16,725 nucleotides of DNA from the IMG/VR virus record IMGVR_UViG_3300013099_000164. One strand, written 5' to 3'. Each line of letters opens with the position of its first letter. The stretch's first letter is position 1. This document shows positions 6,757 through 12,974 of the stretch, piece by piece. Made by a program: the position numbers and the translations under genes. Source of the DNA: a virus. The notes under the pieces were generated by a model that made no database searches, was not told the origin of the DNA, and worked only from the letters and a program-made list of their open reading frames with translations.

Positions 6757-8517
6757 ATGAAACAACTTTTCTTGTTATTAGCCTTTATAATGTTCGGCAT
6801 TACGATTCAGGCTCAGGAGTGCGGTAGTTATGTAGATCTAGTAGGATCTGGCATTGCCGGAGAAAGTTCTGCTTCCTTAATAATCGATGCAACATCGGTT
6901 GACTCTATTGTAGTAGAGGCCATTTATAAATCTACTACTCAACCATCTGCTGTAAGATTTTGGACCGCTACGGAAGAAGTATTTGTAGAACCAGTCGATG
7001 TTTTAGTTAGTGGACTGTTGGGATCGGTTAATAATGATCCAATTATTGCAAGCGTTTATCGAACAACATTGAGCGCCGCATCGATTGTAAATTTGGATAT
7101 TCTCCAAAACACTCCCGAATTTTTTTCCTTTGCAGCTTACGTATTTTCCCCGAGCCTAGGAATTTCTTCCACGGTCAGCGGGGATTTATATCATGTCTAT
7201 AAGAATGAAGATAACCCATTAGTTACAAACATTCCAATTCCTACTTCAGTAAATTCTCGAAATATTACTATTCGATATGGAATTACTGAATTAAACAATG
7301 ATGAAAGAAAAGCTATATTTACATTCGAAGCAGATGGAACATTGATTGAAAAAGAAGTGTATGCTTGGGATGATGGTATTGGAGAAACAGAATCATATAC
7401 GATTCAAGACGTATTGATTTTGGGTGTTCCTGGAAATGTGGATAAAATTATAATGACCCAAATTTCTCATAATTATGATCATGATGGAACTGGAAGAGGT
7501 GATTCTTGGATTGGAGGAAGAGTAATTGCTGATATTCCATGTGAAAAAGAAAAGAAAGATTCTGCCCTGTTTTGTACATATACTCAAGGGTTTTATGGAA
7601 ATAAAGGAGGGAAAACCTGCTTAGGCGAAACAACTCCAGAAATAATTGCAAGGCTATTAGCCACTGATTTAGTATTAGGTTTAGGAAATAATACTTTTAC
7701 TATATCAGCTGGTAATGTAGATGATGTACTGGGTATTCTTCCAGGTGGTGGACCTTCAGCAGTTCTAAATGGACACGCTACTTATGCTAATCCAGTAGGA
7801 TTGAACATGAAAAAAGGAAAACTAAAGAACACACTATTGGCTCAATCCATTACGTTTGCTCTTAACCTTAGGAATAATCCTGATATGCTTTTATTTAAAC
7901 TCGACCCTTTTACTACTCAGTTTCCGATGGATTGTTCTAGCATAGAAGCTGGGGGAATTCCTGGAAGCGAAAAAGAATTTAAGTTCTCTCAAGCTATTGT
8001 GGATTATCTTGGAGATGATGCAACAATAGGAGATCTGCTAGATCTTGTTAATTTGGCTCTTTCGGGTGGAGACATCGGTACATTATCATTAAGTAATGTC
8101 TCTGATGCTGCAACCCTTGTAAATGAGGCATTTGATGAATGTGTATACGTTACAGTTGAAGCAGAGGAAGAAATACCAGAAGTAGCTCCAGTAGTAGAAG
8201 TCATAGAGGAGGATGAAGGTACTGAAGAAGATGGTGGAACAAAAGGAACAACTGGAATAAATGATATTGAAGCAGGTTCTTTTAGTTTATACCCAAATCC
8301 TGTAGGCGATCAGATGTTTATAAATCTTTCACCTGAAATTAGAAATGTTAAAACTATTTCAATGTATAACGTAACAGGAGCAACTGAAAAGATTTTAACT
8401 GATAATTTTAATGCTAATTCAATACAAATCGATGTATCTGATTTAAATGAAGGAATGTATTTTCTAAGAATAGATGCAGACACCGGAACTGTGGTAAGAC
8501 GCTTTACCGTAAACTAA
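6757..8517 (+). CDS. Secreted T9SS substrate: signal peptide, large Ser/Thr/Gly-rich body, acidic linker and C-terminal Por/T9SS sorting domain
   Basis: N-terminal signal MKQLFLLLAFIMFGITIQAQ. The C-terminal ~80 aa (SFSLYPNPVGDQMFINL...GMYFLRIDADTGTVVRRFTVN) matches the TIGR04183/Por_Secre_tail pattern (LYPNP, GxYxxR, K/R-rich end). The EEEIPEVAPVVEVIEEDEGTEEDGG linker sits just before the CTD. Confidence 0.8.
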   Translation: MKQLFLLLAFIMFGITIQAQECGSYVDLVGSGIAGESSASLIIDATSVDSIVVEAIYKSTTQPSAVRFWTATEEVFVEPVDVLVSGLLGSVNNDPIIASVYRTTLSAASIVNLDILQNTPEFFSFAAYVFSPSLGISSTVSGDLYHVYKNEDNPLVTNIPIPTSVNSRNITIRYGITELNNDERKAIFTFEADGTLIEKEVYAWDDGIGETESYTIQDVLILGVPGNVDKIIMTQISHNYDHDGTGRGDSWIGGRVIADIPCEKEKKDSALFCTYTQGFYGNKGGKTCLGETTPEIIARLLATDLVLGLGNNTFTISAGNVDDVLGILPGGGPSAVLNGHATYANPVGLNMKKGKLKNTLLAQSITFALNLRNNPDMLLFKLDPFTTQFPMDCSSIEAGGIPGSEKEFKFSQAIVDYLGDDATIGDLLDLVNLALSGGDIGTLSLSNVSDAATLVNEAFDECVYVTVEAEEEIPEVAPVVEVIEEDEGTEEDGGTKGTTGINDIEAGSFSLYPNPVGDQMFINLSPEIRNVKTISMYNVTGATEKILTDNFNANSIQIDVSDLNEGMYFLRIDADTGTVVRRFTVN

Positions 8518-10757: not shown

Positions 10758-10883
10758 ATGAAAAAGTTTAATTATACTTATATAACTACTAATTTAAAAA
10801 ATGGAAAGAAATATGTCGGGGATCATTCAACAGATATGGAGCTTAAAACTTTTTACAAACTCGGATATATAAACTATAAATGA
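10758..10883 (+). pseudogene. Truncated GIY-YIG endonuclease remnant (N-terminal motif only, 41 aa, then TGA and TAG)
   Basis: NYTYITTNLKNGKKYVGDHS matches the GIY-x10-YIG motif (compare I-TevI GIYQIKNTLNNKVYVGSA). No continuation is found in any frame, and a 128-nt untranslated gap follows. Confidence 0.35.
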
Positions 10884-11011
10884 TAGAAATTATGAAAGAC
10901 GTATTTGGATAGATTAATCAAAAATTAGTTATTATCACCAGGAGAAACTTAAACCCTGGTTATCAAGCTGTTCATAAAAATCATAAATATATAAATAAAT
11001 CAGTTATTTAT

Positions 11012-11653
11012 ATGAATCATCAAAGAGTTTATGACTCTATAATCCAAAAAGCAAAATCCGAAAATAGAAAAAAGAATGGAGAGGTTTATTATGAAACTCA
11101 TCACATCTTACCCCGTTCTATGAATGGAGGAGACGAAGAAAATAATTTAGTGTTATTGACGGCAAAAGAGCACTTTGTTAGTCATAAATTATTACTATTC
11201 ATACATCCATTAAATGAATCCATGAAGCATGCATTTCACATGATGTGTTATTCAAAAAATGGAGACTATATACCATCAGGTAAAGATTTTGAATACGCGC
11301 GTATTTTAATAAGTAATTCACTGAAAGAATCTTACCAAGGTGAGAATAATCCCATGTATGGCAAAAAACATTCTAAGGAAGCAATTCAAAAAATTGGGTT
11401 AAAGAGTAAAGGAAGACGTCACTCTAAAAAATCAAAAGAAAAAATGGCGTTAAGTAAAATAGGAAAAAATAATCCTATGTATGATCAACCTGGATATTTC
11501 ACAGGTCTTACTCGTTCTGATAAAACTAAACAAAAAATAAGTGAAAGTCTTAAAATGGTTCTTAAAAAAGAATGTGAATATTGTCATAGGTTTATATCCC
11601 CTAGTAACTATAATAGACATACAGATAAATGTAAATTAAAAAATATATCATGA
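11012..11653 (+). CDS. HNH homing endonuclease with two NUMOD3 DNA-binding repeats and a C-terminal CxC...H Zn motif
   Basis: HNH core ETHHILPRSMNGGDEENNLVLLTAKEHFVSHKLL. NUMOD3 repeats NPMYGKKHSKEAIQKIG and KKSKEKMALSKIGKNNPMY. The TGA stop overlaps the next gene's ATG (ATGA). Confidence 0.85.
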   Translation: MNHQRVYDSIIQKAKSENRKKNGEVYYETHHILPRSMNGGDEENNLVLLTAKEHFVSHKLLLFIHPLNESMKHAFHMMCYSKNGDYIPSGKDFEYARILISNSLKESYQGENNPMYGKKHSKEAIQKIGLKSKGRRHSKKSKEKMALSKIGKNNPMYDQPGYFTGLTRSDKTKQKISESLKMVLKKECEYCHRFISPSNYNRHTDKCKLKNIS

Positions 11654-11994
11654 CATAGATTAAACTATACATTATAACACGAAGAGATTTGTTACCCGGA
11701 GTACAAATGTTACAAGCTGCCCATGCCGGGATAGATTTTCAACACCAACACCCAGAAATTGCAAAGCAATGGAATAATGAGTCAAATTATCTTATTATCT
11801 TGTCAGTTGAGAATGAAGAACAGCTATTATTGTATTTAGAGAAATTTAAGTACTACAATCTTAAAACAACAATCTTTAGAGAACCAGACATTGGCAATGA
11901 AATAACTGCTATAGTAGTAGAACCCAGTCAAAAAACGAAAAAACTAACTAGCAAATTACCACTTGCTTTAAAGGAAATTAACCATGGCAATTGA
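11650..11994 (+). CDS. PTH2-family peptidyl-tRNA hydrolase; the full-length reading needs translation of an in-frame TAG at codon 3 (11656-11658)
   Basis: Translation from ATG 11650 gives M-T-(TAG)-IKLYIITRRDLLPGVQMLQAAHAG.... This aligns with the PTH2 N-terminus ([27 protein letters not shown] in archaea, [25 protein letters not shown] in humans), and the downstream core (QW...II-SVENEEQL...PD-G-EITAIVVEP) is also conserved. If TAG is not translated, only truncated starts are possible (TTG 11689 or ATG 11707) and both lose the conserved first beta-strand. Confidence 0.6.
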
Positions 11995-12403
11995 GATCGA
12001 GGTCGGGAAACCCCTTAAAAAAATACAATATCAGAACGAATTCAAAGTTCTTGTTAAATTTAGATATAGTGACGCATCTGAAGTAGTTATGGTAGATGCT
12101 GCAGATATGTTTCAACTAAAGAAATTTATTAAAATGTTGGATGATTGCTTAGACGCATATCCAGAAGGAAAGGGTGTGTTAGATACGTACAACCATGTCG
12201 AGAATTTCTGGTTATATGTTGAAACTTATGACTCTTTGAGTCATGAACAACAAGCACAACTTGATGAAATGGCAGAGGGTGCAGAAATTTATCTAGAATG
12301 GCGAATTGATCCAGATGAAGGAGATCAGCACCAGATTGATAGTTACACATTAACATTTTTTGATAGTAACGGAATTGAAAGAGAAGTAGAAATAAAAAAA
12401 TAA
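11984..12403 (+). CDS. Acidic hypothetical protein (139 aa)
   Basis: The ATG overlaps the end of the PTH2 gene. Confidence 0.55.
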   Translation: MAIEIEVGKPLKKIQYQNEFKVLVKFRYSDASEVVMVDAADMFQLKKFIKMLDDCLDAYPEGKGVLDTYNHVENFWLYVETYDSLSHEQQAQLDEMAEGAEIYLEWRIDPDEGDQHQIDSYTLTFFDSNGIEREVEIKK

Positions 12404-12510
12404 AAGCTATGAAAACACATTGGTAGGTACGTCCTAGGGGTCCATAAGTTTATTTTTGTTACAGAAAGTATATTAACAGTAATCAAATTTAAACAAAAAT
12501 AAACAATATT

Positions 12511-12849
12511 ATGGAAACAATAGAAAAAATATATGACGTAAGAAAATTTAAAGCAGAAATTAAAGTAGCTGCAGGATATCAGAAATTCTTAAAAAATCAA
12601 AGAAAAACTGTAAAACTTGTAGGTAAAAGAGAACTTGAGCCTTGGATGGCAACAATGAAACATTATCATAATCGTCAAGATTTAGCTGCAATGTATGTAG
12701 CTTATGGAGTAATGAGAGGCAAAGATTTAGACGAACAAATGAAAGCTCATATCTCAAAAAGAAATGAGTATGCTATGAGTTCTGCAAAAGAAAAAGTAGA
12801 AAAATTGCTTAGTAAATACAAATTAGAAAAAGTAGAAGAATCAGCGTAA
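12511..12849 (+). CDS. Hypothetical protein (112 aa, Lys-rich)
   Basis: ATG start. A TATTTTTG (TAnnTTTG-like) box lies about 55 nt upstream. Confidence 0.55.
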   Translation: METIEKIYDVRKFKAEIKVAAGYQKFLKNQRKTVKLVGKRELEPWMATMKHYHNRQDLAAMYVAYGVMRGKDLDEQMKAHISKRNEYAMSSAKEKVEKLLSKYKLEKVEESA

Positions 12850-12888
12850 TCGGTCTTAGAGGGGGTGGACTTTAAATGACTCCCTTCT

Positions 12889-12961
12889 GTCCGATTAGCT
12901 CAGTTGGCGGAGCGCTGGATTCTAGACCCGGAGGTCGTCGGTTCGATCCCGACATCGGACG
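12889..12961 (+). tRNA. Amber suppressor tRNA, anticodon CUA (Sup-CTA); 73 nt, no encoded CCA
   Basis: The cloverleaf is canonical. Acceptor GTCCGAT/ATCGGAC is 7 perfect bp. D-arm GCTC-AGTTGGCG-GAGC. Anticodon arm CTGGA-TTCTAGA-CCCGG has U33 and anticodon C34-U35-A36 at 12922-12924, G37, and an A31-C39 mismatch at the stem base. Variable loop AGGTC. T-arm GTCGG-TTCGATC-CCGAC. Discriminator G73. Confidence 0.8.
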
Positions 12962-12974
12962 CAAAATTTAGAAT

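Follow-up and report, generated by a model that had tools for sequence, protein, structure and literature searches.

The stretch of viral DNA analyzed here, 16,725 nucleotides of the IMG/VR record IMGVR_UViG_3300013099_000164 (the window), contains a gene of the PTH2 family that carries an in-frame TAG close to its start, and downstream of it a gene for a tRNA with the anticodon CUA. We consider it likely that this locus is a gene-specific amber-readthrough module in a phage that otherwise uses the standard code. The module is conserved in more than 80 related phages, and to judge from this, PTH2 almost certainly has its UAG (codon 3) read as sense. The tRNA(CUA), encoded 1.2 kb away, is the obvious decoder, and the module looks like a switch for one gene and not like a change of the code. 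Its core consists of the following features, numbered as in the window.

11650-11994, + strand: PTH2-family gene, reading M-T-[UAG]-IKLYIITRRDL... and ending at TGA 11992-11994 (Pfam, PHROG and PDB alignments, homologues)
11656-11658, + strand: in-frame amber codon (codon 3 of PTH2), followed by ATT; conserved in homologues
12889-12961, + strand: suppressor tRNA with anticodon CUA, short variable loop, G73 and an A31-C39 mismatch (ARAGORN, Rfam)

The amber codon at the start of PTH2

The local sequence reads ATC ATG(11650) ACA TAG(11656-58) ATT AAA CTA TAC ATT ATA ACA CGA AGA GAT TTG, and the recognizable domain begins directly after the TAG. The match to PF01981 (36.9 bits, cutoff 23) places profile positions 1-114 of 115 on residues 1-102 after the stop codon, with profile position 1 on the first of these residues. 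The gene also matches phrog_1866 at 63 bits and, among PDB entries, 1rzw (E 1.8e-5) and 2zv3 (E 4e-3). The alignments with the archaeal Pth2 structures (1rzw/3erj, 2zv3) begin at residues 2-5 of the structures and at residues 2-3 of the sequence that follows the TAG. The first canonical start codons past the TAG are TTG 11689 and ATG 11707; since the residues after the TAG align with the starts of the solved structures, initiation at either codon would remove strand beta-1. The original prediction had proposed that this strand is recovered only if translation starts at ATG 11650 and reads through the TAG at 11656-11658, and the profile alignment bears this out.

The PTH2/TAG region is 100% identical to an independent Logan assembly and about 99.9% identical to two ENA assemblies, and near-identical copies of the window (99.9-100%) are present in three other public assemblies. 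Because the independent Logan and ENA assemblies agree, an assembly or sequencing error as the source of the TAG is ruled out. These near-identical strains served for confirmation of the sequence only and were not used as comparisons.

Distribution of the module among large phages

A first round of comparison covered ten PTH2 loci from IMG/VR, and a later profile-guided scan added 80 loci. An alignment of 14 PTH2 sequences was too diverse for the pattern search, and an alignment of six sequences from one clade was used instead. Six of the first ten loci begin ATG-NNN(-NNN)-TAG, and two have a TAG in the middle of the gene. A tRNA(CUA) lies beside PTH2 in nine of the ten; in the tenth (L005) the contig ends about 0.6 kb after the gene, so that the tRNA is found in all nine loci that cover its position.

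The same module is present in the huge phages LR756500.1, LR756501.1, LR745206.1 and LR756504.1 in GenBank; in LR756501.1 both parts are doubled, PTH2 having two TAGs and the tRNA(CUA) gene being a tandem pair. It also occurs in two cultured phages: the Tenacibaculum phage pT24 (235 kb) reads ATG AAA TAG ATA and has an annotated tRNA-Sup, and the Acinetobacter phage vB_AbaM_ME3 reads ATG ACT TAG ATT and has a "tRNA-OTHER, anticodon CTA" 450 nucleotides upstream.

Going upstream from the domain in frame, the first stop in 77 of the 80 survey loci is a TAG, and an ATG precedes it by 0-11 sense codons. The other three, from GC-rich phages, start MATIKxGDKLYV without a stop, and all three also lack the tRNA(CUA). 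Pooled with the earlier loci, the 77 give 87 TAG-led genes, which form 62 clusters at 90% identity, 32 at 70% and 17 at 60%. The upstream in-frame stop is TAG in every one of the 87, never TAA or TGA. Given that TAA accounts for 72-85% of the stops in these AT-rich genomes, the exclusive use of TAG is no accident of reading-frame boundaries. Between ATG and TAG there are 0-11 sense codons, usually 1-3 (one in 48/87 genes, two in 21/87), and 30 distinct mini-ORF (open reading frame) sequences precede the TAG. The base that follows it is A in 70 genes and G in 17, never C or T.

A tRNA(CUA) on the same strand and within 4 kb of PTH2 was found at 65 of the 80 loci, which is 65 of the 77 TAG-bearing genes; the loci without it include several truncated contigs. 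It is the commonest tRNA within this distance (72 of about 220), and it often ends 65-150 nucleotides before the ATG. The TAG is not always in the leader: it lies elsewhere in PTH2 at L031 and L033, and second TAGs occur at L035 and L137. These genes too adjoin a tRNA(CUA), with a tandem pair in L035, and the residues that align to the internal TAGs are E, Q or not conserved.

Many homologues have no ATG, GTG or TTG for 45-100 codons past the TAG, or none at all, and a full PTH2 enzyme would therefore need readthrough. The stretch between the TAG and the first start codon is strongly conserved across homologues (KLxVITRRDL..Q..Q..HA), which argues that it is translated. Had the homologues started at the equivalent of ATG 11707, the original prediction would have been contradicted; what they have at their 5' ends favors readthrough.

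These observations bear on a simpler explanation, in which PTH2 starts at TTG 11689 or ATG 11707, or is a decaying pseudogene, and the upstream TAG and the tRNA are coincidental. Public gene calls do use such internal codons, as do BPT24_235 and ME3_195, and ME3 has a GTG inside strand beta-1. A downstream start would, however, delete a strand that aligns to solved Pth2 structures, and many homologues offer no start codon over most of the gene. Neither a downstream start nor gene decay would account for the conserved residues ahead of the first start codon or for a TAG that is kept in all 17 clusters at 60% identity. We regard this explanation as extremely improbable.

The public metagenome gene calls for the PTH2 of the window (95 or 101 amino acids) begin downstream of the TAG and are without the N-terminal leader. 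The leader is likewise missing from the GenBank coding sequences BPT24_235 (pT24) and ME3_195 (ME3), which start at internal codons downstream of the TAG. The comparison thus corrects a systematic annotation error: both GenBank and the gene calls of metagenomes give PTH2 without its N-terminus.

The suppressor tRNA

ARAGORN calls a tRNA at 12889-12962 on the + strand with anticodon cta, and the Rfam model RF00005 matches over its full length (56.8 bits, threshold 29; E 3.5e-10). The anticodon proposed in the original prediction is thereby confirmed. Its description as a clean cloverleaf needs a small amendment: the cloverleaf is that of a real tRNA, but the covariance alignment has one non-standard pair, A31-C39, at the base of the anticodon stem. 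The z-score of the minimum free energy (-0.58) is uninformative by itself. A permissive Rfam scan of the window returned nothing credible beyond the tRNA, and no match to HDV-like (hepatitis delta virus) or theta ribozymes.

The suppressor tRNAs of close relatives have little in common beyond the anticodon and the T-loop, and in a comparison with isoacceptors the best similarity to the window tRNA was about 74%, a level found among tRNAs in general. The suggestion that the suppressor derives from a Gln or Trp tRNA is unsupported, the tRNA bodies being entirely different between close relatives.

A pyrrolysine system was considered and rejected. The D-loop and T-loop of the tRNA are standard, the general model fits it with the score given above, and the Pfam matches of the window proteins include no Pyl genes. 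The label "tRNA-Pyl" that ARAGORN attaches to 12889-12962 derives from the anticodon only.

The genetic code of the phage

The original prediction took the locus as a sign of amber reassignment of the crAss- or Lak-like type, and pointed out that TAG is almost absent as a stop in the window and has a back-up TAA where it occurs. TAG does end only one of the 30 + strand genes (2348-2572), and a TAA follows five codons later. A TAG share of 3-7% of stops is normal for this phage clade, though, with TAG still terminating genes. The median distance from any gene of LR756500.1 to the next in-frame TAA or TGA is 4-10 codons, so that in such AT-rich DNA the back-up TAA is within chance. The coding density of the window is 0.834 under code 11, 0.848 under code 15 and 0.830 in a control that reads TGA as sense, and no real gene in the window other than PTH2 is lengthened when TAG is read as sense. 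Across about 30 related loci, code 15 gave no gain in density beyond the TGA-sense control.

Two relatives could be read as whole genomes. The 462-kb phage LR756500.1, whose PTH2 is 60% and whose MVP-like (Major Vault Protein) protein is 52% identical to that of the window, has a PTH2 that begins ATG-AAG-TAG-ATT and a tRNA(CUA) 0.8 kb downstream. Its coding density is essentially unchanged from code 11 (0.893) to code 15 (0.895), and 29 of its 624 ORFs end in TAG. A scan of the genome singled out PTH2: no other gene has an ATG-x-TAG leader and lacks a start close by. In pT24 the densities are 0.903 (code 11) and 0.895 (code 15), 33 of 271 ORFs end in TAG, and PTH2 is the single TAG-led gene. 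For the late genes, the portal protein of LR756500.1 was used as a query and led to 30 late-gene loci of related phages, among which the closest large relative, a 322.9-kb IMG/VR contig, is not included. In related huge phages, 25 portal or structural loci have a high coding density with code 11 and gain nothing from code 15. The dUTPase at L030 stops at a TAG directly after its conserved C-terminal motif. Release factor 2 and aminoacyl-tRNA synthetases were not seen in the Pfam scan, which covered the proteins of the window.

One further gene with an internal TAG was observed in LR756500.1, a DUF6794 gene (Pfam 85 bits; L045 44642-45049, at about 395 kb of the genome on the minus strand) in which the TAG lies within the domain (IRNN-TAG-GLW). 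Apart from PTH2, no further gene with a TAG turned up in that genome, and this one is confined to that phage.

In the reassignment scenario, TAG would be read as sense genome-wide or in the late genes (code 15), PTH2 would be one of many affected genes, and the window would be an early, code-neutral region. The presence of the tRNA(CUA) and the single TAG stop among the 30 window genes are compatible with this, and in recoded phages the early genes do remain readable with the standard code (10.1101/2021.08.26.457843). In addition, the data on this exact phage exclude structural genes, and the related Lak phages are described as recoded. However, re-prediction under code 15 adds nothing anywhere: not in the window, the approximately 30 syntenic loci, the 25 structural loci, LR756500.1 or pT24. 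TAG ends 5-12% of the genes in LR756500.1 and pT24, as it does the dUTPase of L030 past its conserved motif. The original prediction had held that a lack of other in-frame TAGs genome-wide would count against reassignment, and in the relatives there are essentially none, with one other TAG-containing gene in the 462 kb of LR756500.1. Finally, one TAG position is kept across lineages that are less than 50% identical, and diffuse recoding would not produce this pattern. Recoding of the crAss/Lak type thus fails its defining tests in each relative examined and is not supported; the late genes of the window's own phage lie outside the data. We consider reassignment quite improbable for this phage.

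A proposed one-gene amber gate

In the mechanism that we favor, the PTH2 mRNA would open with a mini-ORF (AUG-ACA) that is closed by UAG. Ribosomes without access to the phage tRNA(CUA) would yield only a dipeptide and no PTH2; once the tRNA is transcribed, processed and charged, the UAG would be decoded and full-length PTH2, including its first beta-strand, would be made. Because the UAG lies in a leader of variable length and sequence, and because the suppressor bodies are unrelated among close relatives, the inserted residue is probably irrelevant, and the codon itself would be the gate. A UAG placed 1-3 codons from the start and followed by a purine should favor the suppressor, since release factors act slowly on nascent chains of only a few residues, and it should keep the "off" state cheap. 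Work by Bossi (1983) and by Miller and Albertini (1983) reportedly made a purine after UAG the classic context that favors suppression. When a mini-ORF shrinks from eight codons to two, termination becomes slower and peptidyl-tRNA drop-off increases (PMC2490762).

PTH2 could then recycle the peptidyl-tRNAs that arise from drop-off and from suppressor-driven readthrough into non-stop situations; several of these phages also encode tmRNA (transfer-messenger RNA). The tie between PTH2 and suppressor activity could be a feed-forward safeguard, or it could be a mere timer that delays PTH2. We infer that the purpose of the gate is to couple PTH2 output to suppressor activity, and the choice of PTH2 as the gated gene would be explained in the same way.

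Several points weigh against this reading. That the tRNA is charged, and that it is the tRNA which decodes the UAG of PTH2, are steps that we infer. The TAG-terminated genes of LR756500.1 have no excess of back-up stops, which would be odd if suppression were efficient. The codon after the TAG is ATT, ATA, ATC, GTA or GTT in 78 of the 87 genes. A tRNA(CUA) also flanks PTH2 genes that have no TAG (L030, L032), and a tRNA(UUA) lies 150-700 nucleotides from TAG-free PTH2 genes in Lak-B1 (L054), Lak-A1 (L055) and LR745208.1 (L057). The link between PTH2 and suppressors thus appears to extend beyond gating, and this is not explained by the gate. As to the enzyme itself, the aspartate (EPD) of the phage proteins aligns with the aspartate of the DAG motif, and the lysine of the archaeal motif GK..AQ..HA is replaced by V or Y in the phage family. 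Mutagenesis of the Sulfolobus solfataricus Pth2 is said to have identified the lysine of the GK motif and the aspartate of the DAG motif as catalytic. Because the lysine is absent, the hydrolase activity of phage PTH2 is putative.

The bias in the codon after the TAG suggests an alternative in which ATG-NNN-TAG is a minigene resembling those of lambda bar, PTH2 is made by reinitiation at the near-cognate codons AUU, AUA or GUA or is regulated by drop-off, and the tRNA(CUA) is not the decoder. This codon has the form A/G-T-H in 78/87 genes whatever its distance to the fold. The ATG ACA TAG of the window satisfies the form of a minigene (AUG, 1-7 sense codons and a stop), and two loci read ATG ATA TAG, the first two codons of which we take to be those of the lambda bar minigenes. 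As minigenes generate substrates of Pth (PMC2490762), a tidy autoregulation would follow. Yet the alternative gives no reason for TAG alone in genomes where TAA makes up 72-85% of stops, and in about 10% of the genes the codon after the TAG is one that does not serve as a start (ACT, ACA, ACG, AGC, AAT, AAC, AGA or GGC). The internal TAGs of L031, L033, L035 and L137 are far from any start and cannot be restart sites, and the linkage and co-variation with the tRNA(CUA) would be left unexplained. We therefore think it unlikely, and prefer decoding of the UAG by the tRNA(CUA).

The deeper tie between suppressors and PTH2 may have another example in mycobacteriophage Myrna, where ARAGORN finds a tRNA(CUA) 130 nucleotides downstream of the PTH2 gene gp84; GenBank labels it tRNA-Ser. 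Together with the tRNA(CUA) and tRNA(UUA) genes beside TAG-free PTH2 genes, this case hints at a functional relationship that goes beyond the gate, possibly a feedback on the suppressor. One could imagine that tRNA(CUA) and PTH2 form a self-contained translational circuit, in which the output of PTH2, by way of the 5' UAG, would report how active the suppressor is, and PTH2 would act on ester-linked (peptidyl or aminoacyl) forms of the suppressor or on the products of readthrough. The phage would so set UAG suppression in the infected cell to a chosen level and buffer it. We regard this circuit as possible but doubtful. If it were true, it would explain the many "orphan" suppressor tRNAs of phages that are not recoded, and it might represent a stepping-stone toward fully recoded lineages such as Lak.

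Comparison with known systems

The recoded phages (crAss-like, Lak, "Agate" and "Jade"; Borges/Peters et al., 10.1101/2021.08.26.457843) have in-frame stops in 26-71% of their genes, and stop-codon recoding in phages has been validated by metaproteomics (PMC9523058). The PTH2 locus shares with them a phage suppressor tRNA that would decode an in-frame stop in a standard-code host, a gene that is blocked until the phage decoding machinery exists, and the arrangement described as a "code-change module" adjoining the genes under its control (10.1101/2021.08.26.457843). In recoded phages, TAG is no terminator and coding density collapses under code 11, whereas here 5-12% of genes end in TAG and the densities are equal. 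The module also differs in that only one gene, rarely two, has the TAG, which is fixed 1-3 codons after the start, and in that the gated gene encodes a putative translation-recycling enzyme and not a lysis or structural protein.

The A1 read-through protein of Q-beta and the UAG between gag and pol of murine leukemia virus are cases of programmed stop-codon readthrough. As in the PTH2 module, a conserved in-frame stop is decoded to give a functional product, and the 3' context matters. These viruses use near-cognate host tRNAs and RNA context or structures to produce a minor C-terminal extension, whereas the stop of the module stands at the very 5' end, so early that only readthrough gives a useful product, and the gene has a cognate tRNA of its own beside it.

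In the pyrrolysine system, the gene for the pylT tRNA(CUA) lies close to genes for methylamine methyltransferases that have a single in-frame UAG. Here too a dedicated tRNA(CUA) is linked to a few genes with a conserved UAG while UAG is still used as a stop. The module differs by its ordinary cloverleaf, by the absence of PylS and PylBCD from the window, by the position of the UAG in a non-conserved leader and not at a catalytic residue, and by tRNA bodies that are not conserved between relatives. With the bar minigenes of lambda and other toxic mini-ORFs the module shares an AUG, one to a few codons and a stop, at which poor termination releases peptidyl-tRNA, the substrate of Pth (PMC2490762, and Hernandez-Sanchez 1998, cited there). 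The bar minigenes stand alone, close with UAA or UGA and starve Pth-deficient hosts of tRNA, whereas the mini-ORF of the module invariably closes with UAG and continues in frame into a hydrolase gene.

For group 2/3 jumbo phages, an archaeo-eukaryotic type of PTH2 has been reported in a survey that mentions neither a suppressor nor a stop codon (Iyer et al. 2021, PMC7824862). Amber suppressor tRNAs were described in the standard-code jumbo phage XacN1, and the authors found no target genes for them (PMC5852040); the PTH2 domain of XacN1 has no TAG. The preprint on recoded phages mentions no hydrolase (10.1101/2021.08.26.457843). We found no description of a PTH2/tRNA(CUA) module in the searchable literature, whose coverage leaves out most subscription journals. 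Jumbo-phage PTH2 and orphan suppressor tRNAs are thus already known, and what is new is the link between them as a conserved and probable one-gene amber gate. PTH2 with its early UAG provides a concrete and widely conserved target for the suppressor tRNAs of large phages that are not recoded, and stop-codon "recoding" in phages appears as a continuum with a switch of one gene and one tRNA at one end. The module is directly testable in two cultured phages, pT24 and ME3, and its compact natural amber-gating leaders and diverse tRNA(CUA) scaffolds are a resource for synthetic biology.

Neighboring genes

Four further elements surround PTH2 and the tRNA.

11012-11653, + strand: HNH-NUMOD3 homing endonuclease at the 5' end of PTH2 (Pfam NUMOD3 63.6 bits, and HNH; phrog_655 153 bits)
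10880-10975, + strand: remnant of a second PTH2 5' end, ..FG-[TAG 10910]-INQKLVIITRRNLNPGYQAV (translation, DNA alignment)
11984-12403, + strand: ORF of 139 amino acids (match to phrog_8562, function unknown), a variable filler of the module
12511-12849, + strand: p112, a helical protein of 112 amino acids with the motif NQRKT...LR.MY.AYG.lRGK, between PTH2 and the tRNA

The HNH gene has the marks of a homing endonuclease: an HNH motif, NUMOD3 repeats and a sporadic presence at a single site. Homologues with 55-64% identity lie directly upstream of PTH2 in L005, L006 and L026, and the gene is absent in L025. The 96-nucleotide remnant upstream of it aligns as DNA, TAG ATT included, to PTH2 5' ends of the L025/L005 type. 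By comparison of these loci, the HNH gene is a mobile element that inserted where PTH2 begins and left behind, upstream, the remnant of a different PTH2 allele. A group I intron with a missing PTH2 exon was also considered for this arrangement, and was rejected because the piece at 10880-10975 duplicates the 5' end.

The TGA of the HNH gene overlaps the ATG of PTH2 (ATGA), as the original prediction had stated; the translational coupling it drew from this did not hold up. The insertion is present in some close relatives only, and codon 2 of PTH2 begins with A in most homologues with or without an ORF upstream, so the overlap is incidental.

The phrog_8562 ORF was not found beside PTH2 in the other surveyed loci. 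The protein p112, with its invariant NQRKT, is found alongside PTH2 and the tRNA in distant loci as well; comparison of its fold gave no functional lead.

Origin and other features of the window

The window has a G+C content of 34%, and its genes are all on the + strand. Judged by sequence, it is a piece of a jumbo phage with a Bacteroidota host: the related IMG/VR contigs are 320-480 kb long, and the host is indicated by the following gene.

6757-8517: protein of 586 amino acids whose C-terminal sorting domain for type IX secretion (PF18962) suggests a host among the Bacteroidota

A megablast search of GenBank phages with the whole window returned no matches. The Pfam matches also include a radical-SAM enzyme.

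Some minor features were noted along the way. About five head-to-tail copies of a 28-nucleotide unit (GAGGGTGCACTGGCTACCATATAGGCCA) occupy 2022-2156, inside a non-coding gap of about 300 nucleotides, and a 23-nucleotide inverted repeat at 1971-2021 precedes them. At 971-1035 there is a tRNA-like element for which ARAGORN reads a four-base anticodon (ccag) and which scores 23 bits with the Rfam tRNA model, below the threshold. In relatives, the equivalent place upstream of the MVP-like gene is taken by arrays of 10-20 tRNA genes, and the element may be a decayed tRNA.

In LR756500.1, the region from 182 to 224 kb (L041-L042) encodes at least five paralogous ORFs of 540-630 amino acids with many tandem "RYG(V/T)xNP" modules. 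They share an endonuclease-like C-terminal domain and are scattered among the terminase, portal and scaffold genes.

The protein of 811 amino acids encoded at 3242-5677 combines an SPFH/Band-7 domain with a vault repeat and the shoulder domain of Major Vault Protein (102 bits), and 20 jumbo-phage contigs conserve it at identities of 40-79%. In eukaryotes, MVP and a TROVE protein are the proteins that mark vault particles. A TROVE protein (Ro60/TEP1-like) is encoded by the same phage at L002 7953-9587, about 4 kb past the 3' end of the window.

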